Shown here in pieces: positions 3,696 through 25,789 of a stretch of DNA of 64,000 nt; position 1 is the stretch's first letter; every line of letters starts with the position of its first letter. The DNA comes from an uncultured Chloroflexia bacterium. Lineage in GTDB: Bacteria > Chloroflexota > Anaerolineae > CG2-30-64-16. The notes beneath the pieces were generated by a model that ran no database searches, was not told the DNA's origin, and worked only from the letters and a program-made list of their open reading frames with translations. Position numbers and translations under genes: made by a program. The DNA is taken from the NCBI GenBank assembly GCA_963774265.1, contig CAVZDU010000002.1:352001-416000 (forward strand), in the 5' to 3' direction.

Positions 3696-3770
3696 GCGGA
3701 TCGTCAAATCACTGGCCCAGGTGCCTCCGAACGCCCTGGGTCGCCATTGGGCACGCGCCTGCGCATGGGC
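3696..3770 (+). repeat. 75-bp direct repeat, copy 2 (overlaps the coxE 3' end)
   Basis: Matches 1521-1595. Confidence 0.9.
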
Positions 3771-4954: not shown

Positions 4955-4966
4955 CGGGAAGAGGCC

Positions 4967-6709: not shown

Positions 6710-6818
6710 TCCATGACTACCGATCGAAGATAACAGATTGAAGATTGAAGCCCGAACCGGCGAGCGTGCGCAAGTCGGGCCTCGATCTTCACTTCAGTCG
6801 TGCACTCCAGTCGTCGCT

Positions 6819-7127
6819 CTACGCGATGACGACCTTCTCCTCCATAAACACATGGGTGCGAGAAGAGCAGTGCGCCGCAGCGTCCGCGCCGGCCGCCTTC
6901 CCGGCGTCCGTTGCGAATCCGGCATTGCGCGCCTCCATGTTGTCGAACCACATCTCAGAGACAGCGTCCGGCGTCGCGGGGTTATCTTCCAGCACGACGT
7001 TCATCCGATAGTGCCGCATGCCCGGGATCTTCTTCCCCAACTCGACGTGCTCTTCGAGCGCCCAGGTGCGGAACTCCTCCAGGGTCATACCTTCTTTGCG
7101 CTTCAACAGCGAAAAGATCTTCAGCAT
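6819..7127 (-). CDS. EthD-family (dimeric alpha/beta barrel) protein
   Basis: MLKIFSLLKRKEGMTLEEFR..W..EH...IPG.RHY...DAVSEMWFD; SD ggagg upstream. Confidence 0.8.
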   Translation of the reverse strand: MLKIFSLLKRKEGMTLEEFRTWALEEHVELGKKIPGMRHYRMNVVLEDNPATPDAVSEMWFDNMEARNAGFATDAGKAAGADAAAHCSSRTHVFMEEKVVIA

Positions 7128-7161
7128 TCGATCCTCCGTTTGTGATGATGGGGGCGGCCCA

Positions 7162-7219
7162 GGGCGGCCACATAGGGCCGCCCCTACCGCCTCGGGCGGC
7201 CACACAGGGCCGCCCCTAC
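7162..7219 (-). repeat. Two tandem GTAG-type REP elements
   Basis: GTAGGGGCGGCCCT(G/A)TGTGGCCGCCC at 7194-7219 and 7162-7187; the TAG of one copy is the stop codon of the upstream gene. Confidence 0.8.
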
Positions 7220-8211: not shown

Positions 8212-8212
8212 G

Positions 8213-9590: not shown

Positions 9591-10065
9591 GGTTGCCTCC
9601 ATTGCGCGCCGGCGGCCTGCTGCACGGCGGCGATGATGGGATCGTAGCCAGTGCACCGGCACAGGTTGCCGCTCAAAGCCTCGGCGATCTCCGCGCGACT
9701 CGGCTGCGGGTTGTGATCGAGCAGCGCCTTGCTGATCATGATCATGCCGGGCGTGCAAAAGCCACACTGCACGGCGTATTTCTCATGGAACGCCTGCTGA
9801 AGCGGATGCAACCCCTCCGCGGGGTGATGCCTTCGAGGGTCAGCACGTCCTGGCCCTCCACGTCTTCCGCGGGCAGGATGCACGAGAGCATCGGCTCGCC
9901 GTTGACCAGCACGGTGCAGCTCCCGCAGTTGCCCTCGTAGCAGCCGCACTTGGTGGCATTGAAGCCCAGCCGCTCGCGCAGCGCCTTGGCCAGGGTCGTG
10001 AACGGCTTGACCATCACTTCGGTCTCCTTACCGTTCAGCGTGAAGGTGACGATTTTAGATGCCAT
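9533..10065 (-). CDS. Mo-hydroxylase I, 2x[2Fe-2S] subunit (frameshift near 9815; 3' end uncertain)
   Basis: GCYEGNCGSC...C in one frame and QCGFCTPG...GNLCRCTGY in the next. Confidence 0.88.
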
Positions 10066-10909
10066 GCTGTTCCTCCTGGGCCGCGACCTGTTCCAGCGCG
10101 CGCTGGACGAAGACACCGGCCATCTTGCGCCGGTACCACTCGGTCGCGATGGGATCGGTGAACGGTTCGCACTCGGCCGCGGCAGCGCCGGCCGCGGCAG
10201 CGATGGTTTCGGCGTTCAAGGCTGAGCCGGCCAGCGCAGCCTCGGCGCCGCGGGCGCGCAGCGGATGCGGTCCGACGGCATTGAGCGCGACGCGCACGTC
10301 CCTGGTCTTGCCGTTGTCGGACATCACGTGCACCGCGACGCTCACGATCGCCGGCGTGTTCGTGTAGAGCCGGCCGTGCTTCAGCAGGACGGTCTTGCCC
10401 GCGGGCCGGGGGACCTGGATCTCGACCACCAGCTCGTCCGGCTCAACCACCGTCGCCATGAAACCGGTGTAAAACTCGGCCAGGGGCACGATGCGCTCGC
10501 CACGAGCTCTGCTGGCCAGCTTGATCCTGGCATCCAGCGCCAGGAACGCAACCGCCAGGTCGCCCGCGGGCGGCGGCGCAAACAGGTTGCCGCCCGCGGT
10601 CCCCATGTTCTGGATGGCCCAGCCCCCGACATTTTTGGCCGCCTCGGCCAGCATGGGGATGCCGGCCTCCTGGCGGACCTGCGTCAGGGTCGCTGCGGCG
10701 CCGATATGCACCGCACCGTTCACCTGGCGCACGTAGTTGAGCCCCGCCCGGCGAAGCCCAAGCACCCTCTCCGGCTTGGAGACGCCCTTGTTCACCAGCG
10801 GGACGGCCAGGGTGCCGCCGGCCATGACAAGGAGCGCAGGGCCGTGCTGGTCCAGCAGGCTCAGCGCCTCGTTCAATGACTGCGGCTGGAGATACGCTTG
10901 CGTTGTCAC
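10055..10909 (-). CDS. Mo-hydroxylase I, FAD-binding subunit
   Basis: MAGGT, IGAAATL, IQNMGTAGGNL, D..AT.WYRR. Confidence 0.9.
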   Translation of the reverse strand: MTTQAYLQPQSLNEALSLLDQHGPALLVMAGGTLAVPLVNKGVSKPERVLGLRRAGLNYVRQVNGAVHIGAAATLTQVRQEAGIPMLAEAAKNVGGWAIQNMGTAGGNLFAPPPAGDLAVAFLALDARIKLASRARGERIVPLAEFYTGFMATVVEPDELVVEIQVPRPAGKTVLLKHGRLYTNTPAIVSVAVHVMSDNGKTRDVRVALNAVGPHPLRARGAEAALAGSALNAETIAAAAGAAAAECEPFTDPIATEWYRRKMAGVFVQRALEQVAAQEEQHGI

Positions 10910-11024
10910 ATTAACACCTCCATTGAGTGTACGGTCACGCCGCGGCGGCCAAGAACCGCGCGGCCATTTTGCGAAAGTTGAGTGGGCCCCTTCAGCGCCT
11001 CCTCGATGGCAGCTCTCTGGGCCC

Positions 11025-11414
11025 TCAGCTTCCCACCAGGCCCTGTTTGATCATCACCAGCGCCGGGTCCGGGCCCTTATAGCCGATCAGATACTCCATG
11101 CGGATCGGTGCAAAGCACTCGTAGAAGACGACATCTTCCTCGCTCAACTTGCGAAAGCCATGGACCACGTTCGAGTTGACGATGAGCAGGGCGCCGGGGC
11201 CGACCTCCTGCTCCTCGTCGCCCACTTTCGCCCAAAGGCGGCCCTGGGCCACCAGCATAATCTGCTCGGCTTCATGCCTGTGCGCCGGAATGGTGACCTC
11301 GCCCTGGTAGGTAATGCGGGTCATCATGACCTTCTCGCCGCACACGGCCTGGCGGAGAACGCCGGGAACATAGGGGTAGGCCGGGAACTCATCCCACGTG
11401 GTGATTTGTGACAT
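11025..11414 (-). CDS. Cupin domain protein
   Basis: PAHRHEAEQ...G...HG metal-binding cupin motifs, F.P.R.EY; SD caggagg. Confidence 0.85.
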   Translation of the reverse strand: MSQITTWDEFPAYPYVPGVLRQAVCGEKVMMTRITYQGEVTIPAHRHEAEQIMLVAQGRLWAKVGDEEQEVGPGALLIVNSNVVHGFRKLSEEDVVFYECFAPIRMEYLIGYKGPDPALVMIKQGLVGS

Positions 11415-11446
11415 GTCATCCTCCTGATGTGATGATAGCCTGTGCA

Positions 11447-12209
11447 CTATCCTGAGCAGCGGCCTCCTGCAGGCTGCCCTGGATGGTCTCGAGGTGCTGC
11501 CGCATGATGGCAGCAGCCGCCTCCGGGTCCCGGCGCGCCAGTGCCTCCACGATGGCCAAGGTGATCTTGAACCGACTGGGACCGCACCCCGGACAGGGTT
11601 GCGGTTCGCCTGCGGCTGGCCGTGCCCAGCCGGGTCAAGCTATCCATGATGCGCGCGATGATCTGGTTGTGGGCCGCCGCGCTGATGATCTGGTGCAGCT
11701 CGAGGTCGGCCGTCAGAAAAGACCTCGGGATCGTCAACATGCGCGGCGGCGCGACTGACGCAAGCACGCAACCGGGCCAATTCCTCGTCGGTCGCGCGGG
11801 TCGCCGCCGCAGCCGCGAGGCCGGGTTCCAGCATCTGACGTGCTTCCAGCAGTTCCGCGAAGGTCGAATCGTCGAGGGCAAAAACAAAGTCGAGATGCTC
11901 GATCAGCACCTCAGGCTTGAGGGAGCTGACGTAGGTGCCCGAACCCTGGCGGATTTCCACGATGTTCAGCATGGCAAGTGCCCGCAAGGCCTCGCGTAGC
12001 GAAGGGCGGCTGACTTGCATCGTAGCCGCAAGGTCCCGCTCAGAGGGCAGCTTGTCGCCCGGTCGCAGCTTGCGCTCGGCGATCAGTGAAAGCAGGCGCG
12101 CTGCGATGCGTTCGGGGAGCACATCACGGGCGACTATACCATAGGTTGGGGCCGTGGAACCAGGCTCTGACACAGCATACACCTCCGGGGTTGAGTCGAC
12201 TGTGTTCAT
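11447..12209 (-). CDS. FadR/GntR-family transcriptional regulator (frameshifted)
   Basis: wHTH KLPSERDLA..MQVSRPSLREAL...GSGTYV; FCD domain ADLELHQII..AAHN in the next frame. Confidence 0.88.
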
Positions 12210-12703
12210 TCATTTCTAGAACGCAAGGGGGGCGCATCGACACCCGTAGTCAGCGCCGCAGCTGCACGCTTGCGCGCCAGCTCCGGCAGCCTGGCCAGCC
12301 CCTGCCGGATGAGCGTTTGGGCCACGCCTTCAGCAAAGCGCGGGCTCATGCCAGCCAGGGGACCGCTGATCTGGGCATCTCCCTGGTAGACGATGCGTGT
12401 CTGCTGCCCCTGGGGCTGCAGAGAGAAACTTGCCTGGCCGGCCACACCTCCGGTCGGCCCACTCGCCTCACCCTGGAACTTGCAGAAGTTGGGCGCCTCG
12501 AATTCCAGCAGCTTGACCCAGGTCTCGTAGGAGCCTGCGATACCCGGGACGCGGAGCGTCATGCGGGCCCGGTACTCGTCGGGCGCCACCTGAACCACGT
12601 CTTCGCAGCCCGGCAATAGCTCAAGCAAGGTGCTTGGGTCGAAGACAAGCGGCCAGATCGCGTCGGACGCAGCATCGATAAGGGACTGTCCGTTGACTTT
12701 CAT
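12206..12703 (-). CDS. coxG: CoxG/SRPBCC-family protein
   Basis: W...DP..L...LPGC, GDAQISGPLA; first gene of the Mo-hydroxylase I operon. Confidence 0.8.
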   Translation of the reverse strand: MKVNGQSLIDAASDAIWPLVFDPSTLLELLPGCEDVVQVAPDEYRARMTLRVPGIAGSYETWVKLLEFEAPNFCKFQGEASGPTGGVAGQASFSLQPQGQQTRIVYQGDAQISGPLAGMSPRFAEGVAQTLIRQGLARLPELARKRAAAALTTGVDAPPLRSRNE

Positions 12704-12969: not shown

Positions 12970-12979
12970 CATTATCAGG

Positions 12980-13066
12980 CGGAGAGGGTGGGATTCGAAC
13001 CCACGATCCCTTTCGAGGATACGCGTTTTCGAGACGCGCGCACTAGGCCAACTATGCGACCTCTCC
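12980..13066 (-). tRNA. tRNA-Ser(CGA), CCA not encoded
   Basis: Reverse complement GGAGAGG...cgcgt-ct-CGA-aa-acgcg...GGTTCGAATCC...CCTCTCCG followed by CCT; long variable arm. Confidence 0.95.
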
Positions 13067-13079
13067 GTAGATGTCTGCA

Positions 13080-13108
13080 ATCATAGCATACGACCAACCC
13101 GGCGGCAA
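13080..13108 (-). promoter_or_regulatory. Promoter of tRNA-Ser(CGA)
   Basis: TTGCCG-N17-TATGAT with extended TGc. Confidence 0.65.
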
Positions 13109-13124
13109 GAAAAGGGCTCTTATC

Positions 13125-14669
13125 ATGAAGGATAAACTCGCAGAACTCCGAGCGATGCGCGCCAAGGCGAAGCTGGGCGGAGGTCAGAGCCGCATCGACG
13201 ACCAGCATTCCCGCGGCAAGCTCACTGGACGCGAACGCATTGATGCGCTGGTGGACTCCGGCACGTTCCAGGAACTGGGCCGGCTGGCCACCCACAACTT
13301 CAGCGATTTCGGCATGGCTGAGAAGCGCTATCCCGGCGACGGCGTTGTCACAGGGTTTGCAAAAATCGACGGCCGGCGCGTCGCCCTCTACGCCCAGGAC
13401 TTCACTGTCCTCGGCGGATCGTTCTCTGAAGTCCAGTCCCAGAAGGTCTGCAAGATCATGGAGCTGGCCATGGAGAGCGGCATCCCCGTCGTGGCGCTGC
13501 TCGACTCGGGCGGCGCGCGCATCCAGGAGGGTGTCCGCAGCCTGGCGGCGTACGGTGAGCTGTTCGTGCGCAACGTTATGGCCTCCGGCGTTGTGCCCCA
13601 GATTTCCGTCCAGATGGGACCTTGCGCGGGCGGCGCGGTTTACTCCCCCGCGCTGACAGACTTCGTGGTGATGGTCCGCAAGACCAGCTATATGTTTATC
13701 ACCGGGCCTGACGTGATCAAAGCCGTTACGGGCGAGCATGTCGACTTCGACACCCTGGGCGGCGCGGTGGCGCATAACGTCCAATCGGGCGTCGCTCATT
13801 TTGCGGCTGACGATGAGGCGGCGGCGTTTCGTCTTATCAAGGAGATCCTCTCCTATCTGCCCCAAAATAACAGCGAGGACCCGCCCCGCGTTCAGCCATA
13901 CGACGACCCGGGCCGCCGCGACGACATGCTCGACCACCTCATACCCGAGGACTCCAGCCAGCCATACGACATGCGACAGGTCATTGCCAGCGTCTTCGAC
14001 CGGGGCAGCTTTCTCGAAGTGCACGCACATTACGCGAAGAACGCGCTGATCGGCCTGGCCCGGCTCGATGGCTTCCCGGTCGGCGTGGTGGCCAACCAGC
14101 CCATGACCCTGGCCGGCGTTCTCGACATTGATTCCTCCGACAAGATCGCACGCTGGGTGCGCTTCTGCGACGCGTTCAACCTGCCGGTCATCACCTTCGT
14201 CGATACACCGGGATATATGCCGGGCGTTGCCCAGGAGCATGCCGGAATCATTCGCCACGGCGCAAAGGTCATCTATGCCTACTGCGAGGCAACGGTGCCC
14301 AAAATCAGCGTTGTGATCCGCAAGGCGATGGGTGGCGCGTACATTGCCATGAGCAGCAAGCAGATGCGCACCGATCTGGCCTACGCATGGCCCACCGCCG
14401 AGATCGCAGTCATGGGTCCGGAGGGCGCGATCAACATCCTCTACCGCGATGAGCTCAAGCGGGCCGAGAATCCCAATGAGCTTCGAAAGAAGCTGCTGCA
14501 GGATTACGTGGACCGCTTCCACAACCCCTACGCAGCCGCAGATATGGGCCAGATCGACGAGGTGATCGAGCCGAGCTACACCCGCCTGCGCCTCGTCAAC
14601 GCGCTCGAGATCCTGCGCTCCAAGGTGGCCAGCAATCCGCCGAAGAAGCACGGCTTGATGCCGGTGTGA
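13125..14669 (+). CDS. mmdA: Acyl-CoA carboxyltransferase, (methyl)malonyl-CoA decarboxylase alpha subunit
   Basis: GKLTGRERI, QDFTVLGGS, DSGGARIQEG, GPCAGGAVYSPA, VDTPGY, AVMGPEGA, PPKKHG; followed by delta, gamma and beta genes, with no biotin carboxylase. Confidence 0.88.
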   Translation: MKDKLAELRAMRAKAKLGGGQSRIDDQHSRGKLTGRERIDALVDSGTFQELGRLATHNFSDFGMAEKRYPGDGVVTGFAKIDGRRVALYAQDFTVLGGSFSEVQSQKVCKIMELAMESGIPVVALLDSGGARIQEGVRSLAAYGELFVRNVMASGVVPQISVQMGPCAGGAVYSPALTDFVVMVRKTSYMFITGPDVIKAVTGEHVDFDTLGGAVAHNVQSGVAHFAADDEAAAFRLIKEILSYLPQNNSEDPPRVQPYDDPGRRDDMLDHLIPEDSSQPYDMRQVIASVFDRGSFLEVHAHYAKNALIGLARLDGFPVGVVANQPMTLAGVLDIDSSDKIARWVRFCDAFNLPVITFVDTPGYMPGVAQEHAGIIRHGAKVIYAYCEATVPKISVVIRKAMGGAYIAMSSKQMRTDLAYAWPTAEIAVMGPEGAINILYRDELKRAENPNELRKKLLQDYVDRFHNPYAAADMGQIDEVIEPSYTRLRLVNALEILRSKVASNPPKKHGLMPV

Positions 14670-14685: not shown

Positions 14686-15111
14686 GTGAACCCAACCGTC
14701 GGAGAACTCCTTCAATCGGGGCTGACCATCACCGTTCTGGGAATGGGGCTGGTGTTTGCCGCCCTGGTGCTCCTGTGGGGCTTGCTTCGCCTCCTTTCAA
14801 CCGTTTTCCAGGACAAGGTGGAACCGCCGCCACAGATCAGCACAGCCCTCGATGAAGCCGAGGCGGCCGAGGTGCGGGCCGCGCTGGAAGCCGCTGCAGC
14901 CTTGACCGAGGAACGCGGCCAGGTCGCGGCGCTGGTGGCAGGGGCGTTGCTGGCGAACGCGCTGCCTTTACTCTTCGAGGCGCCCACCGGCCCCGCTTTC
15001 GAGCACGGCCGCACTGCGCCCTCCTGGGTGACAGGTAACCGGGCGCGGGCGCTGAGTTCATGGCAGCCTCCGCGCACACCCGAACCGAATCCACACCAGG
15101 GCACGGAATGA
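14686..15111 (+). CDS. mmdD: Na+-pumping decarboxylase membrane anchor (OadG/MmdD family)
   Basis: N-terminal helix ITVLGMGLVFAALVLL, E..VAALVAGA, SW..GNR. Confidence 0.78.
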   Translation: MNPTVGELLQSGLTITVLGMGLVFAALVLLWGLLRLLSTVFQDKVEPPPQISTALDEAEAAEVRAALEAAAALTEERGQVAALVAGALLANALPLLFEAPTGPAFEHGRTAPSWVTGNRARALSSWQPPRTPEPNPHQGTE

Positions 15112-15139: not shown

Positions 15140-15599
15140 GTGCCAACCTTCGATGTGATGATCCAGGGCAAGAAATACCATGTCGAGATCCCTGACCCCG
15201 GCGCCACCCCGCTGCAGGTCATTGTCGACGGGGAGCCGTTCGATGTGGAGGTGTCGGGCACCGAGTCCACAGTCCACGCCGACCCTCCGCGCGGCGGCGC
15301 CCCGGCCCGCGCCCGAGCCCCCCAAGCTGCCACCCCTGCCGAACGTGAAGGTCGCCCGGCCTGCGGCGCCCAGCGGCCCAAGCGGCGGACACGACATCCT
15401 CTCGCCGATGCCGGGCACGATTCTGTCTATAGAGGTTAAGGTCGGTGAAGCGGTCGAGTCCGGCCAGGTCGTCGCCGTGCTCGAAGCGATGAAGATGAAA
15501 AACCCGATCCGCGCCAACTTCGACGGGACCGTGAGTGAGATCGCGGCGACCCCTGGCCAGGCCGTGGCCTACGGTGACGTGTTGGTCCGACTGGCCTGA
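15140..15599 (+). CDS. mmdC: Biotin carboxyl carrier subunit (frameshift near 15285)
   Basis: SPMPGTI...VLEAMKMKN biotinylation motif; Pro/Ala linker. Confidence 0.88.
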
Positions 15600-15610
15600 A
15601 GGGGGCAGCC

Positions 15611-16776
15611 ATGAGCATCGGTTGGGACACTCTGCTGTCCATTTTCGCCGGGTTGGGAGAGCTGACCTGGGCCAACGTGCTGATGATCGCGGTCGGCGCG
15701 GTGCTCATCTACCTGGCCATCGCCAAAGAGTACGAGCCGGTCCTGCTGATCCCCATCGGCGTGGGCGCGATCCTGGCGAACATCCCAGGCGCAGGCATGG
15801 GACTCGACCTGCGGGCCATCATGGCCGGCGAACCCCAGGAAGGCAGCGTCTTCTACGCGCTGTACAAAGCAGGCATCGAGACCGAGCTCTTCCCGTTGAT
15901 CCTCTTCATCGGGATCGGCGCCATGACCGACTTCGGACCGCTGCTGTCGAACCCGCGGATGGTGCTGGTCGGCGCAGCGGGCCAGTTCGGCATCTTCGCC
16001 GTCCTGCTGCTCGCGCTGGCGACCGGCCGTTTCTCCCTGCCCGAGGCCGCGTCGATCGGCATCATCGGCGCCATCGACGGCCCGACCAGCATTTTCGTCG
16101 CATCCAAGCTGGCGCCGCACTTGCTGGCGCCCATCGCCGTCTCTGCGTATACCTACATGAGCCTGGTGCCGATCATTCAGCCGCCCATCATGCGCCTGCT
16201 CACGACGAAGGCCGAGCGCCGGATCCGCATGCCGTATATCGAGCGCCCGGTCAGCAAGCGCGCTCGCATCATCTTCCCCCTGGTGGTCACCCTTCTGACC
16301 GGCTTCCTGGCGCCCCAGGCCAGCCCCCTCATCGGCACGCTGATGTTCGGGAACCTGATGCGCGAGTCGGGCGTGGTGGACCGTCTGGTCAAGACCGCCG
16401 GCAACGAGCTAGCGAATATCGCCACCATCTTCCTGGGCATCACGATCGGTGCGACCATGGTCGGCGACGTCGTTCGCCAACGTTCAGACGCTCATCATCC
16501 TGGTCCTGGGCATCCTGGCCTTTGCGCTGGACACCGCAGCCGGCGTGCTGTTCGGCAAGCTGCTCAACGTGCTCACGCGCGGCAAATTCAACCCGCTTGA
16601 TCGGCGCGGCGGGCATCAGTGCATTCCCGATGGCTGCGCGGGTCGTCAATCGCGTGGGTCTCGAGGAAGATTATGACAACTTCCTGCTGATGCACGCGAT
16701 GGGCGCAAACACTGCCGGTCAGGTGGCTTCGGTCCTGGCCGGCGGCATTGTGCTGGCAATCATGACAGGAATCTAG
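15611..16776 (+). CDS. mmdB: Na+-translocating carboxybiotin decarboxylase beta subunit (two frameshifts near 16470 and 16595)
   Basis: [74 protein letters not shown]. Confidence 0.92.
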
Positions 16777-16778
16777 CT

Positions 16779-18359
16779 ATGCCAATTCTGACTCGCATCA
16801 AGCCTTCAGAGTATCACGACTCGATCACCCTCATGCAGGCAGCGGCCGCGCTCCTGGACATGCCTGGGATTACGGATGCGGCCGTGATCATGGGCACCCC
16901 CGCGAACCACGAGATCGTCTCGGGCGCGGGATTGCTGACGCCGGAGGCCGCGGCGACGCGGCCGGACGATCTGGTCATCATCGTCAAAGCTGCCGATGAT
17001 GCGGCCGGCCAGGCCGCGCTGGCGAAAGCTGAGGAAATCCTGTCGCGGCGGGCCGAACGCACGGAGGCGAATTCAGCGCGCCCCAAGTCGCTGGCATCAG
17101 CCATCGCGGCCGATCCCCGGGCGAACCTGGCGGTGATCTCGGTCGCAGGCCGCTATGCCGCACAAGAAGCGCGCACCGCGCTCGAAGCCGGGTTGCACGT
17201 GCTCCTCTTCTCGGACAACGTGCCCCTGGAAGACGAGATCAGCCTCAAGGAGCTGGCAGCAAGCAAGGGCTTGCTGTGCATGGGGCCGGACGCCGGCACC
17301 GCGATCATCAACGGCGTCGCGCTGGGGTTTGCGAACGCAGTCCCGCGCGGCAGCATCGGGTTGGTCAGCGCAGCGGGCACCGGGCTGCAGGGGGTGACCT
17401 CCGGAATTGCACGCCGCGGCGTGCGCGGCGCCGCGAGCGGCGCGGGCGTGTCGCAGGCCATCGGCACGGGCGGCCGCGACCTGAGCGAGGCGGTCGGCGG
17501 CAAGATGATGCTCCAGGGGCTGAAGATGCTCCAGGAGGACCCCGAGACAGAGGTGATTGTCCTCATCTCGAAGCCGCCTGCCCCGGCGGTTGCCCAGAAG
17601 GTGCTCGGCGCGATCACCAAGGCCAAGCCCACAGTCGTGTGTTTCCTCGGCGCAGACCTAGGCGCGATCGAGAAGGCCGGCGCACTCCCAGCGACGACAC
17701 TGACGCAGGCGGCTGTGATCGCGGCCAGCCTGACCACCGGCGGCAACTACTGTGAAGCGTTGATGGGTTTGGAAGACTTCAGTCAGGATCTGATCCCCCT
17801 GGCTGAAGGCGAGCGCAGGAAGCTCGCTCCAGGCCAAACTGCGCTGCGCGGCCTCTTCGTCGGCGGCACTTTCTGCTACGAGGCCCAGCTCCTGCTCAAG
17901 AACCTGCCCGAGCCGGTGCACAGCAACGCGCCGCTGATCGAGGCGAACAAGCTGGGGGCTGAGACATACAAGCACACGATCATCGACCTCGGTGAGGACG
18001 AATTCACTCAGGGACGCCCGCATCCGATGATCGACCCGACGCTGCGAAACCGGCGCATCACCCAGGAGGCAGGGGATCCCTCTGTCGGGGTGATCCTGCT
18101 CGACTTCGTGCTCGGCTATGGCAGCCACATCGACCCTGCTGGCGCAGCGCTGGAGGCAATTCGCCAGGCGCAGCGAACTGCGCGGGAGGCCGGCCATAAC
18201 CTGGTCTTCGTCGCTTCAGTCTGCGGCACGGAGGCCGATCCCCAGCGCCTGAGCGACCAGGAGGCGAAGCTGCGCGGGGCTGGCGTGATCGTCCTGCCCG
18301 ACAATGCGTCGGCTGCGAGACTGGCGGGCTTGATCAGCCAGGGATTGGACGAAGCCTGA
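16779..18359 (+). CDS. FdrA-family protein, YahF-type architecture (succinyl-CoA synthetase-like fold)
   Basis: YHDSITLM, MGTPAN, LFSDNV, MGPDAGT, GTGGRDL, DLGEDEFTQGRPHPMIDP, DFVLGYGSH; starts 2 nt after the mmdB stop. Confidence 0.9.
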   Translation: MPILTRIKPSEYHDSITLMQAAAALLDMPGITDAAVIMGTPANHEIVSGAGLLTPEAAATRPDDLVIIVKAADDAAGQAALAKAEEILSRRAERTEANSARPKSLASAIAADPRANLAVISVAGRYAAQEARTALEAGLHVLLFSDNVPLEDEISLKELAASKGLLCMGPDAGTAIINGVALGFANAVPRGSIGLVSAAGTGLQGVTSGIARRGVRGAASGAGVSQAIGTGGRDLSEAVGGKMMLQGLKMLQEDPETEVIVLISKPPAPAVAQKVLGAITKAKPTVVCFLGADLGAIEKAGALPATTLTQAAVIAASLTTGGNYCEALMGLEDFSQDLIPLAEGERRKLAPGQTALRGLFVGGTFCYEAQLLLKNLPEPVHSNAPLIEANKLGAETYKHTIIDLGEDEFTQGRPHPMIDPTLRNRRITQEAGDPSVGVILLDFVLGYGSHIDPAGAALEAIRQAQRTAREAGHNLVFVASVCGTEADPQRLSDQEAKLRGAGVIVLPDNASAARLAGLISQGLDEA

Positions 18360-18363
18360 AAGG

Positions 18364-19773
18364 ATGACCGACATGGACCTGTTCCGCCAACCCTTGAAGC
18401 CGATCAACGTCGGCCTGGAATCGTTCTACGAAAGCATGGTCAGCCAGGGGCGCCGGCCGTCGCTGTGGACTGGCGGCCGCCGCTCGAGGGCTACGTCGAG
18501 ATGCTGCGCACACGCGACGGGGTCGACATCGAGGCGGCCAACGCCGAGGCCTTCGCGCGCATCACCGCGGGCCGCCCGATGCTCGTCGGCATGGGCATGG
18601 CACAGCGACGTGATCCCCGGCTTCGCGCCGGCGCACGGCGCGGATGCTGATCACGCACAGCGGGCCGCCGATCGCGTGGGAGCGCATGTGCGGCCCGACG
18701 CGCGGCGCAGTCATGGGCGCGCTGATCTACGAAGGGCTGGCCGAGACGCCCGAAGACGGCCGCGGCCCTGGCCGCGTCCGGCGAGATCGAGTTCGCACCC
18801 TGCCATCACTACGGCGCGGTCGGGCCGATGGCGGGCATCATCAGCCCATCGATGCCGGTGTTCATCGTCAAGAACGAGGCATTCGGCAACGTCGCCTACG
18901 CCACGCAGAACGAGGGGCTGGGCAAGGTGCTGCGCTACGGCGCGTACGGGCCCGGAGGTGATCCGCCGGCTCAAGTGGATGGAGACGGTGCTCTACCCAG
19001 CGCTCAAGGCGGCGCTGGAGGTCAGCGGCCCGATCGATCTGCGCAGCATGACCGCACAGGCGCTGCACATGGGCGACGAGTGCCACAACCGCAACAAGGC
19101 CGGCACTTCGCTCTTCATCCGGCTGATCGCGCCGGCGCTGGTGGAGGCGGTGAAGGATCGCGGCAGTCGTTGCCGAGGTGCTGCGCTTCATCGACGGCAA
19201 CGACCACTTCTTTCTGAATCTCTCGATGCCGGCGATGAAGGCAATGCTGGCTGCCCGCCGAAAACATCCCCGGCTGCACGGTCGTGACCATGATGGCGCG
19301 CAACGGGACGGATTGGGGCATCCGCGTCAGCGGCACGGGCGACCGCTGGTTCACCGCGCCCGCGCCGTTGGTCGCAGGGCTCTGGCTGCCCGGCTTCACC
19401 GCGGCCGACGCCAACCCGGACATCGGCGACAGCGCGATCACCGAGACGGGCGGGATCGGCGGGTTTGCGCTGGCCGGCGCGCCGGCCATCGTCAAGTTCG
19501 TCGGCGGCACGCCGGCCGACGCGCTGAACGCGACGCTGGAGATGTACGAGATCACGCAGGGCGAACACACCGCGTTCACGATCCCCGGCGCTCAATTTCC
19601 GCGGCACGCCCGTCGGCATCGACGTGCGCAAGGTGATGCGCACCGGGATCACGCCGCGGCTGAACACCGGCATCGCACACCGGGAGCCGGGCGTGGGCAT
19701 GGTGGGCGCCGGGCTGGTGTAGGCGCCGAAGGGGTGTTTTGTGGCCGCGTTTGAGGCGCTAAAAGCGATCTGA
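18364..19773 (+). CDS. DUF1116 protein, YahG-type (several frameshifts; in-frame TAG at 19720)
   Basis: INVGLESF...DWRPP N-module, HSGPP, PCHH..AVGPMAG, NEGLGKVLRYGA, MGDECHNRN, DIGDSAITET.GIGG, NTGIAH. Confidence 0.88.
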
Positions 19774-19809
19774 CCGCCCATCTTGTGATACATTTCTCGC
19801 ATTGAGTGC

Positions 19810-19838
19810 TTGCACAATCCGGCAAAGCTGTGTATAGT
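19810..19838 (+). promoter_or_regulatory. sigma70-type promoter, probably leaderless transcript
   Basis: TTGCAC-N17-TATAGT; the ATG at 19845 follows the -10 box after 6 nt, with no SD. Confidence 0.6.
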
Positions 19839-19844
19839 GTCACC

Positions 19845-20858
19845 ATGCACATGAAAAACAACCGGTTCTCCTGGCTGTTCCTCGTGCTGGTTACCATCAT
19901 CATGCTTAGCCTGGCCCCAGCCGCACAAGCGGCAGGTCGTGGCGCGCCGCTTCCGCCCTCCGGCGGAAAATACACCGTGCGCGTCAACGACACCCTATGG
20001 GACATCGCCGCCAGGTACGGCATGACCGTAGCACAGTTAACAGCCGCGAACCCAGGCGTCAACCCGGCGGCCCTCCGCCCCGGCCAGATCCTGACAATCT
20101 CCTCTGCAAGATCGCAAGTTTCCGATACCGTTCCCGAAGCTCCCTGCGCCGTCTATGCCGTAATGCCCAATGACACCTTGTGGGACATTGCCGCCAATTA
20201 CGGCCTGACGCTCGACGATCTGCTCGCCGCAAATCCCGGGGTCGATCCCAAGCGCCTCATGGTGGGGCAGGAACTGACGATTCCAGGCATCAGTCAAGAC
20301 ATGCTCTCGGCCCAGACGACCGCGGCGCCAGCACCCGGAGGGGAGGTAGCCCCTGCAGCCGAAGCCGCACCTGCTGCCGAGGCAGCGCTTCCGGTCGCGG
20401 CAGCACCTGCAGCCGAGGCGGCAGCGGCGCCCGGCGTGGGGGCTGCTCCTGCGGCCGCGCCGGAAGTCAGCCCAATGGCCCAGGAGATGCTGAACCGCAT
20501 CAACGAGAAACGCAGCGCGGGTGGACTTGCCGCGCTGACATGGAATGGCCAATTGGCCGCCGCGGCGCAAGCACACGCAGAGGATTGCGCCACAAGAAAC
20601 CGCGGCAGCCACGTAGGTTCGGACGACGCGCGGCTTGCCGCACGGCTCCAGCGCGCGGGCTATGCCCCGAGCTGGTCCGGCGAGAACTGGGCCAATGCCC
20701 GCAGCGTCGAGCGAGCCATGCAGATGTGGTGGAACGAGCCACGCGGCGCAGATCCGCACGTGCAGAACATCATGGCCCGCCGCGCAACGGAAATCGGCAT
20801 CGGAGTCGCCCGGGGCGCCTGGGGCATTTACTTCATCGCCGATTTTGGGAGCCAATGA
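19845..20858 (+). CDS. Secreted 2xLysM + CAP(SCP) domain protein
   Basis: Signal peptide, two Y.V..NDTLWDIA..YG.T...L.AANP repeats, Ala/Pro linker, CAP motifs (IN..R, AAQAH, H.GSD, GEN, H..NI, EIGIG). Confidence 0.88.
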   Translation: MHMKNNRFSWLFLVLVTIIMLSLAPAAQAAGRGAPLPPSGGKYTVRVNDTLWDIAARYGMTVAQLTAANPGVNPAALRPGQILTISSARSQVSDTVPEAPCAVYAVMPNDTLWDIAANYGLTLDDLLAANPGVDPKRLMVGQELTIPGISQDMLSAQTTAAPAPGGEVAPAAEAAPAAEAALPVAAAPAAEAAAAPGVGAAPAAAPEVSPMAQEMLNRINEKRSAGGLAALTWNGQLAAAAQAHAEDCATRNRGSHVGSDDARLAARLQRAGYAPSWSGENWANARSVERAMQMWWNEPRGADPHVQNIMARRATEIGIGVARGAWGIYFIADFGSQ

Positions 20859-20875: not shown

Positions 20876-21749
20876 ATGAAGCTCATCGATCTCACCATCC
20901 CTCTGGGCATCGGCACGCCGGCCTGGCCCACCTATGAGCCGCTGCAGGTCAAGTACTTCAAGCGGCTGGCGCCCAACGGCGCGAACGGCCAGCTGCTCAC
21001 CCACTCGAACCACCTCGGCACCCACCTGGACGGCGAAATCCACTTCTACACGCCCGGCAAGGACATTGCCAGCCTGGATATGGACTTCCTGGTCGGCCCG
21101 ACGGCCATCGTGGATCTCTCGGACGTCTGCGGCAACTACGATATCTACACGTCGCAGATGATCGAGGAGCGGGTCGAGGTGCGCGAGGGCGACATCCTGA
21201 TCATCCACACCGGCTACCATCACTTCGGCTGGGACATGCCCACGGCCGACGAAATCCGCTACATGGTGCAGCATCCGGGCCCGGACCGGGAGTTCTCGGT
21301 CTGGGCGAAGCAGAAGGGCATCAAGTGGATCGGCGTGGACTGCGGCAGCGCGGATCATCCGATGAACACGATCATCCGCCAGTGGATGCCGCGCCAGGCC
21401 AAGGAGGCCGACGCTCACTTCCAGAAGAAATACGGCGTCGAGCCTGGCCGAACGCTTCGACGATTCCAAGTACCAGCTCATGCACATCGAGATGTTCCCC
21501 GATCACATCATCCACGCGGAGTGCATCGGCGGCGAGATCGACCTGCTGCTGAACCGCCGGGTGACCGTCGGCTTCTTCCCCTGGCGCTTCGTGGACGGCG
21601 AGAGCAGCATCGGACGCTGCGTGGCCTTCGTCGAGGATGACGAGTACGAAGAGCTGATGGCGAAGAAGGCGGCGCTCAAGACCACGAAGTTCGGCGACGC
21701 ATTCAATCCGGCGCACGTGGAGCGGATCAATGCGTTGACGCGGACGTAG
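20876..21749 (+). CDS. Cyclase-family (kynurenine formamidase/isatin hydrolase-like) metal amidohydrolase (frameshift near 21440)
   Basis: DLTIPL, HLGTHLDG metal motif, GDILIIHTG, GVDCGSADHP, HAE; SD aaggagg. Confidence 0.88.
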
Positions 21750-21796: not shown

Positions 21797-22702
21797 ATGC
21801 AACGCTTCACCGCAGCCTGCGCACAGTTCGCCATTGCGCCGATGGACATCACGGCCAATGTCGCGAAATCGGTCGCGTGGACGCGCCGGGCGGTTGAGGA
21901 ATCCGGCGCGCAGCTCGTCGTACTCCCTGAGACCATCACCACCGGCTTCGTCCCCCGTGTGGGCCCGGGCGATCTTTGGGATCTGGTTGACACGTTGCCC
22001 GGACGCCTGTTCGAGCCACTGCAGTCCGCGGCGCAGGAGTTGGGGATCTATCTGGCGTTCGGAACCTACGAACGCGGGCTGACACGCGGCGTCGTGTACA
22101 ACTCGGCCGCGCTGCTCGGGCCGGGCGGCGACATCCTGGGGGTCTACCGCAAGACCCATCTCTTCCCTACCGAACGGATCGGTCCCCGCCGCGATCCAGC
22201 CGACCCCAACAGTGCCAATGGCTGGTCGACGCCGGCCGATGACCCGGTGGTGGTCGAAACCCCGCTGGCCAACATCGGCCTCACCATTTGCTTCGACGGC
22301 GACTTCCCGGAGCTGTATCGCGCGGAAGCGCTCATGGGCGCCGAGGTGATCATCCGCACCAGCGCGTTGCTCCGTTCTTTCGAGATCTGGGAGTTGACCA
22401 ATCGAGCCCGCGCTTATGACAACCACGTCTACCTGATTGGCTGCAACTACGTTGGACCCGATGCTGGCGGTAACTACTACTTCGGTCACAGCATGATCGT
22501 CAATCCCATTGCTCAAAAACTGGCCCAGGCGCGCGGCACCGAAGAGGTTTGCTTTGCCGAGCTCGACCCGGACCCGCTCAAGCACATCACCTACGGCACG
22601 GTCAGCCCAATGATCTTCGAACACCTGCGGGAGCGCAACCTGGCTGCCTATCGGAACATCCTGACACCGGGTGAAGGCGCGTTTCAGCCAGCAAAGAGAT
22701 AG
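21797..22702 (+). CDS. Carbon-nitrogen hydrolase (nitrilase superfamily amidase/carbamoylase)
   Basis: Glu-Lys-Cys triad: VLPE, YRKTHL, ICFDGDFPE; ARAYDN; GHSMIV. Confidence 0.92.
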   Translation: MQRFTAACAQFAIAPMDITANVAKSVAWTRRAVEESGAQLVVLPETITTGFVPRVGPGDLWDLVDTLPGRLFEPLQSAAQELGIYLAFGTYERGLTRGVVYNSAALLGPGGDILGVYRKTHLFPTERIGPRRDPADPNSANGWSTPADDPVVVETPLANIGLTICFDGDFPELYRAEALMGAEVIIRTSALLRSFEIWELTNRARAYDNHVYLIGCNYVGPDAGGNYYFGHSMIVNPIAQKLAQARGTEEVCFAELDPDPLKHITYGTVSPMIFEHLRERNLAAYRNILTPGEGAFQPAKR

Positions 22703-22705
22703 TCC

Positions 22706-23896
22706 ATGCAGCCACTGGATGGTATCCGCGTCATTGACCTGACCGAGGCTTTGGCCGGGCCGATCTGCACGATGATGCTCGGTGACCTGGGTGCGGACGT
22801 GGTCAAGATCGAACGGCCCGGCACGGGCGACATGTCGCGCGGCTGGGCGCCACCCTTCGTCGGCCCGGAGAGCGCCTACTTTCTCAGCGTCAACCGCAAC
22901 AAACGTAGCTTGACCCTCAATCTGCGCGAGCCAGAGGCGCGCACCGTCCTCCAGAGGCTGGTCGGTCAGGCGGACGTGTTCGTCGTCAACCAGCCGCGAC
23001 TCGACTCGCTGCAGCGGCTGGGCGCGGACCCGGACACGCTGTGCACGATCAACCCGCGGCTGGTGTATTGCGCGGTCAGCGGCTACGGAATGACCGGCCC
23101 TTACGCCGGGCAGGCCGGCTACGACATCCTGGCCCAGGCCGCCTCAGGTCTGATGGCGCTCACCGGCGAGCCGGGTCAGGGGCCCATCCGTTACCCTGTC
23201 CCGCTGAGCGACGCGTCCGCGGGACTGAACAGCGTCATCGGGATCCTGTCAGCGTTGCTCGCCCGCACGGTTTCGGGCCGGGGCCAGTTCGTGGATGTTG
23301 CGCTGCTCGACAGCCAGGTCGCCTGGCTCACCAATATCGCTGGCGCTTTCTTTGCCACCGGGGTCCGGCCTCCCAAGCTGGGCAACGCGCATCCCAATAT
23401 CGTGCCCTACCAGCCGTTCCAGGCGCGGGACAAGCACTTTATCGTCGCGGTGGGCAGCGAGCGGCTTTGGGAGCGCTTCTGTCAGGTCCTGGGCATCACC
23501 GAAACCATCGGCCGTGACCCGCGCTTCGCGACCAACGCCGACCGGTTGCGCCATCGCGACGAGTTGGTATCCGAGCTGGCGCGCATCTTTGAAACGCAGG
23601 ATGCTGAGCATTGGCTCGTACGGCTCAAGGCAGCTGATATTCCGGCCGGGCCCATCAATGAAGTGGACGAGGCGCTCACCGATCCGCACGTGCTGGCGCG
23701 CGGGATGGTCGTCGAGATGGAGCATCCGGCGGCTGGACCAGTGCGTTCGCTCGGCACTCCGGCCCATCTCCGAGATACGCCGGCTACCTATCGACTGCCC
23801 CCGCCCACGCTGGGGCAGCATACGATCGAGATTCTGGCACACCTGGGGTACTCGCAGGCGCAGATCGAGCAGCTTGAGAAGCAAGGGGTGGTCTGA
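22706..23896 (+). CDS. Class III CoA-transferase (CaiB/BaiF/Frc family)
   Basis: PLDGIRVIDL, LAGP, LGADVVKIE, NRNKRS, GYD..AQA.SG, catalytic Asp in PLSD. Confidence 0.93.
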   Translation: MQPLDGIRVIDLTEALAGPICTMMLGDLGADVVKIERPGTGDMSRGWAPPFVGPESAYFLSVNRNKRSLTLNLREPEARTVLQRLVGQADVFVVNQPRLDSLQRLGADPDTLCTINPRLVYCAVSGYGMTGPYAGQAGYDILAQAASGLMALTGEPGQGPIRYPVPLSDASAGLNSVIGILSALLARTVSGRGQFVDVALLDSQVAWLTNIAGAFFATGVRPPKLGNAHPNIVPYQPFQARDKHFIVAVGSERLWERFCQVLGITETIGRDPRFATNADRLRHRDELVSELARIFETQDAEHWLVRLKAADIPAGPINEVDEALTDPHVLARGMVVEMEHPAAGPVRSLGTPAHLRDTPATYRLPPPTLGQHTIEILAHLGYSQAQIEQLEKQGVV

Positions 23897-23916: not shown

Positions 23917-23945
23917 TTGACACTGCCCCGCGGCGATGCTATACT
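23917..23945 (+). promoter_or_regulatory. Near-consensus sigma70 promoter of the fdrA-ylbE-cyclase-Mo-hydroxylase II operon
   Basis: TTGACA-N17-TATACT with extended TGc. Confidence 0.8.
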
Positions 23946-24043
23946 GGCCCTCGCCGGTAATCTTGAGGCTGCTCCGAGTTTGTTCCACACCTGTCCGAAA
24001 TCAGTTCGAGCGGACTGAGCCACAACCTGACATCGGAGTCATC

Positions 24044-25789
24044 ATGACGGTCGTCCAAGCTGAGGTACGGCGCAGTGCCTATTACGACTCCATTGTCCTC
24101 ATGCAGTTGCGTGCCGCGCTTTCCGAGCTGCCCGGCGTCATCGACGCCGGCGTGGTAATGGGCACGCCAGCCAACCTCGAATTACTGACTCAAAGCAATC
24201 TCCTCCCTCCGGAGGCGCAGGGCGCCAGACCCGACGATCTGATCATCACCATCGAAGCGCACGATGAGGCCGCGGCCCGCGCGGCATTGGCGCAAGTCGA
24301 CGCGCTGCTCACCCGGCGGAGATCAACCTTGCAGCAAGAGCACCGTCCGCAGAGCCTGGAAACGGCCGCGGACCTGGCGCCAGAGGCCGCCTGGGTGCTG
24401 ATTTCCGTGGCCGGCCGGTACGCAGCCGGGATCGCGCGCGCCGCGCTCAACCTTGGCAAGCACGTTTTCCTGTTCAGTGACAACGTCCCGGTCGAGGACG
24501 AGATCGCACTCAAAGCGAGAGCGGCGGCTCGGGGCCTACTGGTGATGGGGCCTGACTGCGGCACCGCAATCATCAACGGGATCGGACTGGGTTTCGCCAA
24601 TAAGGTGCGTCGAGGCTCAATCGGCGTTGTGGCCGCGGCGGGCACGGGTCTGCAACAGGTCACGGCGCGCATCCATCAGTTGGGCGGCGGCGTCACCCAC
24701 GGCATCGGCACGGGGGGCCGTGACCTGACAGAAAAAGTCGGAGCGGTCACGTTCCGTCAGGCGCTCGACGTGCTCGCCCGCGACTCCGAAACGCGCGTCA
24801 TTACCCTGGTGTCCAAGCCGCCTGCGCCAAAGGTTGCGGAAGAGATGCTGTCGCTGGCCCGACTGGCGCCGAAACCAGTCGTGGTGAACTTCATCGGGCG
24901 TGCCGCGTCGACTTGGCAGATAGACAATCTTCACTTCGCAACAGGGCTCGACGATGCAGCGCGGTTGGCGGTGGAGTTGACGACCAGGGACTGGCCGGCA
25001 GCCCTTCCGGGAGACAAAGCCGGGAGATCAGGTTCGGGACAGGGGGGAGATTTCGCACCTGGCCAGCGCTACCTGCGCGGGCTTTACTCCGGAGGCACCC
25101 TGGCCTACGAGGCGCAATATCTCCTCCAGGACTACCTGCCGCAGGTCTGGGCCAACGCACCGCTCGACAAAGCCAACCGGATACCCAACTCCCTGGTGAG
25201 CCAGCAACACACGATCATTGACCTGGGCGAGGACGAATTCACCGTGGGCCGGCTGCACCCCATGATGGATAACGAGCTGCGTATCCTCCGGCTGAGCCAG
25301 GAGGCCGCCGATCCGGAGACAGCCGTGATCTTGCTGGATGTGGTGCTCGGCTATGGCTCGCACCCCGACCCCGCAGGCGAGCTGGCCCCCGTGATCGCCG
25401 GCGCGAAGGCAGCAGCCCAGGCTGCTGGCCGTCACCTCGAGATCGCCGCGGTCGTCACCGGCACGGACGAAGACCCGCAGAACTTCAGCAGTCAGATCGA
25501 GCAGTTGCGCGCCGCCGGCGCCTGGGTAGATGCCAGCAACGAGGCGGTCGTGCGCTATGCAGGCCGGATCTTGCGGACACTAAATCCCCAGTCCCGCGTA
25601 CCGGATCGCCAACAACCCGTAGACCTGGCCACCCTGCAAAGAAACCTCTCCGCCATCAACGTCGGCCTGGAGTCTTTCGCCGAGAATCTGATCGCCCAGG
25701 GCGCGCAGGCCATCCAGGTGGACTGGAGGCCGCCCGCCGGGGGGAACCAGAAGCTGATGGGGATTCTGGAGCGAATGAAGAGGAGCTAG
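24044..25789 (+). CDS. fdrA: FdrA/AllF-type protein carrying the C-terminal INVGLESF module
   Basis: YYDSIVLM, LFSDNV, MGPDCGT, GTGGRDL, GRLHPMMD, C-terminal INVGLESF...DWRPPAGGN. Confidence 0.88.
   Translation: MTVVQAEVRRSAYYDSIVLMQLRAALSELPGVIDAGVVMGTPANLELLTQSNLLPPEAQGARPDDLIITIEAHDEAAARAALAQVDALLTRRRSTLQQEHRPQSLETAADLAPEAAWVLISVAGRYAAGIARAALNLGKHVFLFSDNVPVEDEIALKARAAARGLLVMGPDCGTAIINGIGLGFANKVRRGSIGVVAAAGTGLQQVTARIHQLGGGVTHGIGTGGRDLTEKVGAVTFRQALDVLARDSETRVITLVSKPPAPKVAEEMLSLARLAPKPVVVNFIGRAASTWQIDNLHFATGLDDAARLAVELTTRDWPAALPGDKAGRSGSGQGGDFAPGQRYLRGLYSGGTLAYEAQYLLQDYLPQVWANAPLDKANRIPNSLVSQQHTIIDLGEDEFTVGRLHPMMDNELRILRLSQEAADPETAVILLDVVLGYGSHPDPAGELAPVIAGAKAAAQAAGRHLEIAAVVTGTDEDPQNFSSQIEQLRAAGAWVDASNEAVVRYAGRILRTLNPQSRVPDRQQPVDLATLQRNLSAINVGLESFAENLIAQGAQAIQVDWRPPAGGNQKLMGILERMKRS

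Follow-up and report, generated by a model that had tools for sequence, protein, structure and literature searches.

A predicted Na+-pumping methylmalonyl-CoA-type decarboxylase operon next to a putative nucleobase island in an uncultured Anaerolineae bacterium

What does a Na+-translocating decarboxylase do directly in front of a gene of the AllF/FdrA family? This question is raised by a 64 kb stretch of DNA (G000:C2:352001-416000, in the following called the window) from an uncultured Anaerolineae bacterium, whose genome G000 is a 5.5 Mb assembly in 10 contigs with 84% completeness. Here, the operon mmdADCB for a decarboxylase of the methylmalonyl-coenzyme A (CoA) type (Mmd) is followed on the same strand by genes for FdrA- and AllG-family proteins, cyclase-family hydrolases, molybdenum (Mo) hydroxylases, an amidase, a CoA-transferase and a permease. 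Judged by its gene content, this same-strand island would be a nucleobase catabolic cluster that is as yet uncharacterised. We propose, with a probability of about 0.5, that mmdADCB is the first part of this island and that uracil or thymine would be converted to (methyl)malonyl-CoA, which would then be decarboxylated by the Na+ pump. The arrangement is a hint, though no proof, that Anaerolineae of this kind gain energy from the fermentation of uracil or thymine.

The window was compared with a panel of 41 related genomes, of which 27 contain the pump subunit family OAD_beta, with 80 FdrA loci from a species-level genome collection (40 labelled Chloroflexota and 40 others) and with a class-wide sample of 301 genomes drawn evenly. 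The genus comprises 8 genomes, and congener counts for mmdB refer to 7 of them. The nearest public relatives of the FdrA protein in the window are metagenome-assembled genomes (MAGs) of Anaerolineae/Anaerolineales. Open reading frames (ORFs) of the relatives' loci were scanned with Pfam (105 of 136 from batch 1 and 93 chosen from batches 2 and 3), mostly excluding ORFs already named by tblastn, and these ORF calls are no better than their Pfam matches.

The decarboxylase operon and its junction with fdrA1

The operon lies on the forward strand and starts with mmdA (13071..14669), which encodes the carboxyltransferase alpha subunit of PccB/MmdA type (PF01039, 626.7 bits). It is followed by a gene for an mmdD-type small membrane subunit of the OAD_gamma family (14686..15111; PF04277 with 40.4 bits at a cut-off of 27, TIGR01195 with 38.4 bits at a cut-off of 36.05), by mmdC for the biotin carboxyl carrier (15180..15599; PF00364, 70.7 bits), whose translation contains the biotinylation motif EAMKM, and by mmdB for the Na+-translocating beta subunit (15611..16776; PF03977), which is present in three frames in the assembly. 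The latter is the single OAD_beta gene of the genome. Thus, the families alpha, delta/gamma, biotin carrier and beta follow each other in series, and the A-D-C-B order that an earlier sequence-only reading had described was confirmed. A tRNA-Ser(CGA) gene (12978..13066, reverse strand; ARAGORN, Rfam tRNA 54.3 bits) is located directly upstream of mmdA.

The same reading had called for a comparison of MmdA with related systems. MmdA scored 620-664 bits against PccB-type chains in the PDB, with 1vrg (664) as the best match followed by 1x0u (635). The 12S transcarboxylase subunit was matched with 580 bits and GcdA with only 94-109 bits, while the malonate-decarboxylase models stayed far below their cut-offs in this system (TIGR03136 22.7, TIGR03133 82.3 and TIGR03134 40.3 bits). 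Because the PccB-type scores are high, those of GcdA and the malonate-decarboxylase models are low and the carrier contains EAMKM, the enzyme is by sequence comparison a biotin-dependent decarboxylase of Mmd type for malonyl-type acyl-CoA esters, with a PccB/MmdA-type carboxyltransferase, and neither of GcdA nor of malonate-decarboxylase type. An identity as glutaconyl-CoA or oxaloacetate decarboxylase was ruled out by the profile and PDB scores. An Ile residue of MmdA aligns with position 422 of Streptomyces coelicolor PccB; we take Ile at this position to relax the specificity toward shorter acyl chains (acetyl-/malonyl-CoA). A reverse function of Mmd as acetyl-CoA carboxylase was also considered and is unneeded, as contig 1 encodes a carboxyltransferase and a biotin carboxylase.

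The junction between mmdB and fdrA1 reads GGA ATC TAG CT ATG CCA, with the mmdB stop codon TAG at 16774-16776 and the fdrA1 start codon at 16779. The reported gap of 2 nucleotides (nt) is therefore correct. An AGGA motif is present approx. 11 nt upstream of the ATG within the 3' end of mmdB. A scan for consensus promoters and terminators found none at this junction, in agreement with the earlier statement, which is a trivial result given a 2-nt spacer. In relatives, mmdB and fdrA are separated by 9-167 nt or by about 900-1200 nt, and allH is found between both genes in the long-spacer relatives that were checked. The spacers of 9-167 nt comprise 11 distinct sequences, of which three, from three relatives, were chosen and scanned for sigma-70-type promoters and terminators, with 0 sites in each. 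The 2-nt spacing is not kept in relatives and is unremarkable, while the adjacency itself is kept. The mmd genes and fdrA1 are presumably co-transcribed.

The window contains two pairs of fdrA and allG genes on the forward strand. The short fdrA1 (16779..18359) matches NF004760 with 475.1 bits (cut-off 433) over positions 3-490 of 555, which assigns it to the FdrA family, a level at which the models used do not distinguish YahF-type from AllF/FdrA proteins. Its product is 51% identical to that of the long fdrA2 (23936..25789; NF004760 with 554.2 bits, positions 2-555 of 555) and scored 267 bits against E. coli FdrA (3dmy). The downstream gene allG1 (18364..19773), a member of AllG/DUF1116, consists of eight frame pieces with PF06545 fragments in three ORFs, whereas allG2 (25799..27067) is intact (291.1 bits, positions 1-215 of 215). 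A segment with INVGLESF forms the C-terminus of the fdrA2 product (residues 562-589; 25619-25702) and the N-terminus of the allG1 product (residues 2-29; 18364-18450). On this alignment, the boundary between the FdrA and AllG subunits is shifted, so that the segment absent from the short fdrA1 begins allG1. ORFs of about 1000 aa in which FdrA and AllG are fused were seen in locus L064 and in several genomes of the class-wide sample.

A sigma-70-like site was detected at 23917-23945 (TTGACA, 17 nt, TATACT; 11 of 12 positions). It is the best one in 12 kb and overlaps the annotated start of fdrA2. Given this match, and since residue 40 is the first one aligned to the family model, the true start of fdrA2 may lie later than annotated, and the gene may head its own transcript.

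A predicted pyrimidine route and its rivals

The proposed steps, including substrates and flux direction, are derived from family membership and gene context. Uracil or thymine would be imported by a uracil-permease-like transporter and oxidised by a Mo hydroxylase at C6 to (5-methyl)barbiturate. Ring opening by a cyclase-family amidohydrolase would lead to (methyl)malonurate, a homologue of oxalurate. From this, the AllF/AllG-like enzyme could remove the carbamoyl group to give carbamoyl phosphate, in analogy to the oxamate carbamoyltransferase of E. coli, and carbamoyl phosphate would yield ATP via a carbamate kinase. The (methyl)malonate would be released by a Nit2-like amidase and its CoA ester formed by a family III CoA-transferase, and Mmd would finally decarboxylate the ester to acetyl- or propionyl-CoA under export of Na+. 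A pyrimidine is proposed as substrate because PccB-type carboxyltransferases need a malonyl-type thioester with its alpha-carbon; to our knowledge, the pyrimidine skeleton is the sole ureide route that yields one. Oxalyl-CoA from oxamate was ruled out as substrate on these chemical grounds.

Genes of all classes of this route (permease, hydroxylase, ring hydrolase, AllF/AllG, amidase, CoA-transferase and Mmd) are present in the window; the gene for the carbamate kinase is found in another part of the genome. The genes described next are all located on the forward strand. The NCS2 nucleobase permease (33399..34859; PF00860, 160.2 bits) is closest to uracil permease, with 201.8 bits for NF007995 compared to 113.5 bits for xanthine permease, both below the cut-offs. 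Mo hydroxylase 2 (28829..32621; PF00941, PF03450, PF01799, PF02738 and PF20256, no NCBIfam equivalog cut-off reached) consists of flavin adenine dinucleotide (FAD) and 2Fe-2S parts with frame breaks and a large subunit at 30204-32621. Mo hydroxylase 3 (35614..39232) was recognised by profile matches to its FAD, 2Fe-2S and large subunits. Cyclase-family hydrolase 1 (20876..21640; PF04199) has orthologues of 70-96% identity in Anaerolineae loci, and its nearest PDB entry is a kynurenine formamidase with 49 bits. A further ORF of 559 aa (27149..28828) contains PF04199 in both halves with 85 and 108 bits. Stretches of equal length with 74-81% identity occur in genomes G235, G216 and G091, and the tandem form of this ORF is probably real. 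The CN-hydrolase, an amidase of the nitrilase superfamily (21797..22702; PF00795, 170.9 bits), has Nit2 (2w1v, 96.6 bits) as its nearest PDB entry. It is followed by the family III CoA-transferase (22706..23896; PF02515, 429.3 bits), for which no NCBIfam equivalog cut-off was reached.

The linkage of mmd genes and fdrA recurs in other genomes, as the synteny search proposed by the sequence-only reading now shows. FdrA was also found in 23 of the 27 OAD_beta relatives, and fdrA directly follows mmdB, at a distance of at most 2.5 kb, in 13 of these 27. The mmd genes are located upstream of fdrA in 22 of the 80 FdrA loci, all of them among the 40 Chloroflexota-labelled ones and none among the other 40; of the 18 Chloroflexota loci that lack mmd genes, 9 have less than 3 kb of upstream DNA. 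Within the class-wide sample, 116 genomes contain OAD_beta and 109 FdrA (72 both, 44 OAD_beta alone, 37 FdrA alone and 148 neither), an association that is overstated by the kinship of non-independent genomes. Both genes are at most 2.5 kb apart in at least 9 of the 72 genomes with both (families f1, f41 and f35), and 7.2 kb apart in G235, where the distance refers to fdrA2; in G091 and G216, the distance is 22 kb. These class-wide counts are a lower bound, as many matches touch contig ends. By our own arithmetic, a distance within 25 kb, observed in 12 of 72, would be expected in approx. 1 of 72 upon random placement in a genome of approx. 4.5 Mb.

The order of the partners differs among these genomes, and in further families mmd occupies other positions of the same island. 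In G235, mmdADCB is followed by a BMP-type ABC transporter, fdrA2, allG2, a cyclase and a Mo hydroxylase FAD subunit. In G091, the series begins with fdrA2 and ends with Mo hydroxylase 3, a pyridoxal phosphate enzyme and mmdA-gamma-C-B, so that mmd is contiguous with the island; all of these genes share one strand, and the gaps measure 126 and 33 nt. Only mmdC-mmdB was found in G216, 3.3 kb from Mo hydroxylase 3. That the same partners occur in differing arrangements speaks for a linkage under selection.

The operon could nevertheless be that of an ordinary methylmalonyl-CoA decarboxylase, which acts in the conversion of succinate to propionate on substrate from mutases encoded elsewhere, with the island merely located downstream, maybe read through, and no common pathway. 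This explanation is the main rival, which we consider less probable than the pyrimidine route. Propionate fermentation is also the published interpretation of Mmd in Chloroflexi RBG-9, according to the part of PMC3971608 that was available. A number of observations weigh against a pyrimidine route and mostly in favour of this explanation. The window contains neither mutase nor biotin carboxylase, as previously stated, and the only matches of the genome are on contig 1; this contig, however, has two mutase loci as well as a carboxyltransferase linked to biotin carboxylase, and mutase was found in 39 of the 41 relatives. A succinate-to-propionate role is therefore conceivable, and the earlier conclusion from the missing mutase to a ureide-derived substrate is weak. 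MmdA matched the mmdA model TIGR01117 with 763.3 bits, below the cut-off of 998.8. OAD_beta occurs without FdrA in 4 of the 27 relatives and in 44 of the 116 class-wide genomes with the pump, and Mmd is hence not dedicated to the island. MmdA is the same orthologue (82-92% identity) in family members in which fdrA does not follow. Genome G023 has lost fdrA, allG, cyclase and amidase but still contains mmdADCB next to what is left of the island, and in the congener G007, 26 kb of unrelated DNA lie between mmdB and an island without fdrA1-allG1. The tRNA-mmdA junction is common to the window and the distant loci L031, L033 and L061, so part of the linkage is simply inherited. The conserved tRNA/signal recognition particle (SRP) RNA-mmdA junction speaks for a stable chromosomal site, and much of the adjacency of mmd and island may be inherited rather than selected.

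The propionate explanation has to account for the fact that mmd genes were found on the mutase contig in none of the 27 OAD_beta relatives; mmd genes that accompany mutase and never yahFG-type genes, the pattern named beforehand as a counterexample, were thus not what the relatives presented. This differs from Xylanibacter, whose mmd genes are located at mutAB and epimerase loci in the accessible part of PMC11575231. In addition, mmd is joined to the island in at least three differing arrangements, and the presence of OAD_beta and FdrA is associated in the class-wide sample with the above-mentioned bias by kinship. The genomes G319 and G320 (L036:7285-11569 and L052:4251-8231) bear on both sides. 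They contain mmdA, a small ORF, the biotin carrier and fdrA, whereas OAD_beta was found neither in the locus nor in the genome and no biotin carboxylase is adjacent. Hence, mmdA and carrier precede fdrA even without the pump, which speaks against the propionate explanation, but it is the carboxyltransferase and not the pump that stays linked to fdrA, which does not favour a pyrimidine route with a Na+ gradient either.

The AllF/AllG step of the proposed route faces objections of its own. In E. coli, AllF-AllG-AllH is an oxamate carbamoyltransferase, all three genes are needed and a carbamate kinase is encoded alongside, as described in the section of PMC11326118 at hand. AllH (PF11392/DUF2877) had no match in G000 at its 84% completeness and in none of the 8 genomes of the genus, but is present in 11 of the 41 relatives. 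Carbamate kinase exceeded its cut-off only at C1:425167-426099 on contig 1 and thus outside of the island, and the Pfam scans of the cluster revealed neither allantoin-pathway nor carbamate kinase genes. The neighbour is therefore not a ureide branch of the E. coli allantoin/oxalurate type. In the available DNA of five distant mmd-allH-fdrA-allG loci, neither a CoA-transferase nor an amidase was seen, and in four of them no Mo hydroxylase or cyclase either, which is a further point against the pyrimidine route as outlined.

Instead of a carbamoyltransferase, the AllF/AllG(/AllH) partner could be a CoA-dependent enzyme of the succinyl-CoA-synthetase kind that supplies Mmd with (methyl)malonyl-CoA or converts the acyl-CoA product of Mmd to the acid and ATP. 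We regard this as improbable. The product of fdrA1 matches CoA_binding (27 bits), Ligase_CoA (131.9 bits) and models of the succinyl-CoA synthetase alpha subunit, NF004760 bore the older database name acyl-CoA synthetase, and mmdADCB-allH-fdrA-(GNAT-Dabb)-allG is the most conserved distant unit, as in the five loci mentioned above. However, the alignment with the succinyl-CoA synthetase alpha subunit spans residues 104-272 only and falls short of the phosphohistidine region, the window has its own CoA-transferase and amidase, and purified E. coli AllFGH transfers the carbamoyl group between carbamoyl phosphate and oxamate in the available portion of PMC11326118. Acyl-urea thiolysis is a just as doubtful variant, in which the AllF/AllG-type enzyme would pass the (methyl)malonyl group straight to CoA and set urea free without phosphate. 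It is compatible with the CoA-binding and CoA-ligase signatures retained in FdrA and with the five distant loci. If true, mmdADCB-(allH)-fdrA-allG would be a self-contained module from ureide to sodium gradient, and amidase and CoA-transferase would be unneeded.

AllFGH-like genes have varying neighbours in other genomes. A core of FdrA, AllG, cyclase and Mo hydroxylase, mostly with AllH, was found in Lentisphaerae, Ignavibacteriaceae, Kiritimatiellae and unclassified MAGs. Family III CoA-transferases are encoded in the clusters of L049, L064 and L070, and that of L064 also contains acyl-CoA dehydrogenase and thiolase. A nucleoside phosphorylase gene in L064 and a gene of the DHO_dh family in L060 hint at pyrimidines, as do the permease scores, the Nit2-like amidase and the Ile residue of MmdA in the window. 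Upstream of allH, the place of mmd is occupied in other phyla by a thiolase-like gene and a small gene (L057, L062, L068 and L100), the latter matching DUF35/ChsH2 in L057 only, and by an unnamed 250-aa ORF in L057, L062 and L068. The genes at this place point to CoA-ester chemistry next to AllFGH-like genes. A Dabb-domain gene is located between fdrA and allG in L040, L044, L054, L060 and L061. It is fused to GNAT in four of them and stands alone, after a DUF4058 gene, in L040.

If the link between pump and island is functional, the uncultured Anaerolineae that are abundant in digesters, wetlands and soils would live by a fermentation of pyrimidine bases in which energy is conserved at two steps, namely, by ATP formation from carbamoyl phosphate and by a Na+ gradient from (methyl)malonyl-CoA decarboxylation. 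This would be a new physiological role for an Mmd-type pump, would give the AllF/AllG-cyclase-Mo-hydroxylase cluster a defined end product and would provide a candidate growth substrate for these bacteria, which are difficult to cultivate. If it is not functional, the locus is a standard Mmd operon plus a neighbour.

Frame breaks and further genes of the window

With its length of 1166 nt, the region 15611-16776 is not divisible by 3, and mmdB is consequently not one ORF. The sequence-only reading had treated it as a single frame and missed two single-base insertions. Positions 2-252, 249-306 and 293-348 of PF03977 were matched in three frames, and the pieces 15599-16468, 16470-16628 and 16597-16773 are 96%, 77% and 100% identical to the intact orthologue in L026. 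The frame switches near 16469 and at 16597-16628 are due to one extra base each. In allG1, eight ungapped pieces in alternating frames are 79-92% identical to the intact AllG of L026. The pieces of both genes span the profile or orthologue end to end. Programmed frameshifting in mmdB was ruled out by its single-frame orthologues.

These frame breaks are most likely errors of a long-read assembly, since intact orthologues exist, the pieces are complete, breaks occur genome-wide and contigs of relatives lack the extra bases. OAD_beta is full-length in one frame in 5 of the 7 congeners. In G005 it is split across two contigs, and G001, the sole other congener with pieces within one contig, is likewise an assembly of few contigs (40, 75% complete). 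Within G000, split frames also affect the large subunit of Mo hydroxylase 1 (7216-9767, 3 ORFs), the GntR/FCD regulator gene (11447-12209, 2 ORFs), the FAD/FeS part of Mo hydroxylase 2 (28829-30273), the second carboxyltransferase on contig 1 (G000:C1:1486988-1488456, about 7 pieces), a mutase gene and the biotin carboxylase gene. Related contigs from wetland and soil are 1 letter shorter across both mmdB switches, one loose contig end of relatives crosses the second switch without the extra T, and 5 of the 7 allG1 switches have a compensating 1-nt indel in the expected direction at the switch itself or close to it. On the other hand, the breaks are unevenly distributed (0 in mmdA and fdrA1, 2 in mmdB and 7 in allG1), which would fit real decay of mmdB and allG1 to pseudogenes and a coupled unit that is non-functional in this strain. 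The lack of AllH matches throughout the genus and the absence of fdrA1 and allG1 in G007 would also agree with decay, and the comparison contigs come from relatives: the best two DNA read runs contained just 0.07 and 0.05 of the sampled words and represent related populations and not G000. Considering the high remaining identities, the full coverage and the indels of opposite direction in related contigs, we find real pseudogenes unlikely. This question is independent of the pathway readings.

A gene for a secreted or cell-wall type LysM-LysM-CAP protein (19806..20858, forward strand; PF01476 100.8 bits, PF00188 75.7 bits) is located amid the catabolic cluster. It has the same position in L026, L028, L031 and L033 and stands after mmdB in G023. 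A CoxG-family protein (PF06240, 79.1 bits) is encoded at 32622..33269 on the forward strand. The divergent block on the reverse strand (3704..12703), assigned with Pfam, comprises CoxE, a CoxD-like ATPase, Mo hydroxylase 1, a cupin, the GntR/FCD regulator and CoxG. The CoxD-like AAA ATPase (4967-5887) matched the MadB family AAA-type ATPase as its best NCBIfam model with 266 bits, below the cut-off of 475. This block lies between two tRNA-Ser genes (1398-1487 and 12978-13066) that are 11.5 kb apart. In L031 and L033, the two tRNA genes upstream of mmdA are only approx. 300 nt apart, so the block in the window looks like an insertion. Rfam searches at the gathering score in the window and four loci found tRNAs and SRP RNA only and no riboswitch.

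Comparison with known systems

The kind of enzyme is known, but its context in a nucleobase island was not found in print: no paper in the open-access literature was found in which AllF/AllG or the breakdown of pyrimidines is connected with this pump. The operon of the window encodes the same four subunit families as those for the Mmd enzymes (EC 7.2.4.3) of Propionigenium modestum (mmdADCB) and Veillonella parvula, arranged as alpha, delta, gamma (carrier) and beta, and likewise a carboxyltransferase of PccB/MmdA type. Both characterised enzymes are encoded in single operons, and their delta subunit is the counterpart of OAD gamma, as far as the accessible text of PMC11575231 goes. The present operon differs in its score of 763 bits on TIGR01117 (<998.8), in its broken mmdB in the assembly and in its connection to a nucleobase island in place of a mutase context; its activity and ion specificity are predicted.

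The resemblance to E. coli AllF-AllG-AllH and AllK, as far as they are covered by the available text of PMC11326118, lies in adjacent FdrA-family and DUF1116/AllG genes, which occur twice in the window, and the same type of N-acylurea bond would be cleaved. In contrast to E. coli, AllH is lacking in genome and genus, the carbamate kinase is encoded on another contig, no allantoin genes are present in the cluster and allG1 begins with the C-terminal segment that is missing from the short fdrA1. Mmd, Mo hydroxylases and cyclase-type hydrolases are encoded in the neighbourhood.

With respect to energy conservation, the idea of a pump driven by malonate decarboxylation is shared with Malonomonas rubra, whose biotin-dependent, Na+-pumping malonate decarboxylase combines an OadB-like pump with a biotin carrier. 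However, the window encodes a PccB-like carboxyltransferase of the CoA-ester type, its matches to malonate-decarboxylase models are weak and no acyl carrier protein genes were seen.

The predicted intermediates barbiturate, ureidomalonate and malonate would be those of the oxidative pyrimidine pathway of aerobic actinobacteria with uracil/thymine dehydrogenase, barbiturase and ureidomalonase. Ureidomalonate is hydrolysed to urea in the known route, whereas in the island this hydrolysis would be replaced by the action of an AllF/AllG-type enzyme together with an amidase. The known barbiturase belongs to the cyanuric-acid-hydrolase family, according to the available parts of PMC4051656 and PMC3758960, and would be replaced here by a cyclase-family PF04199 protein.

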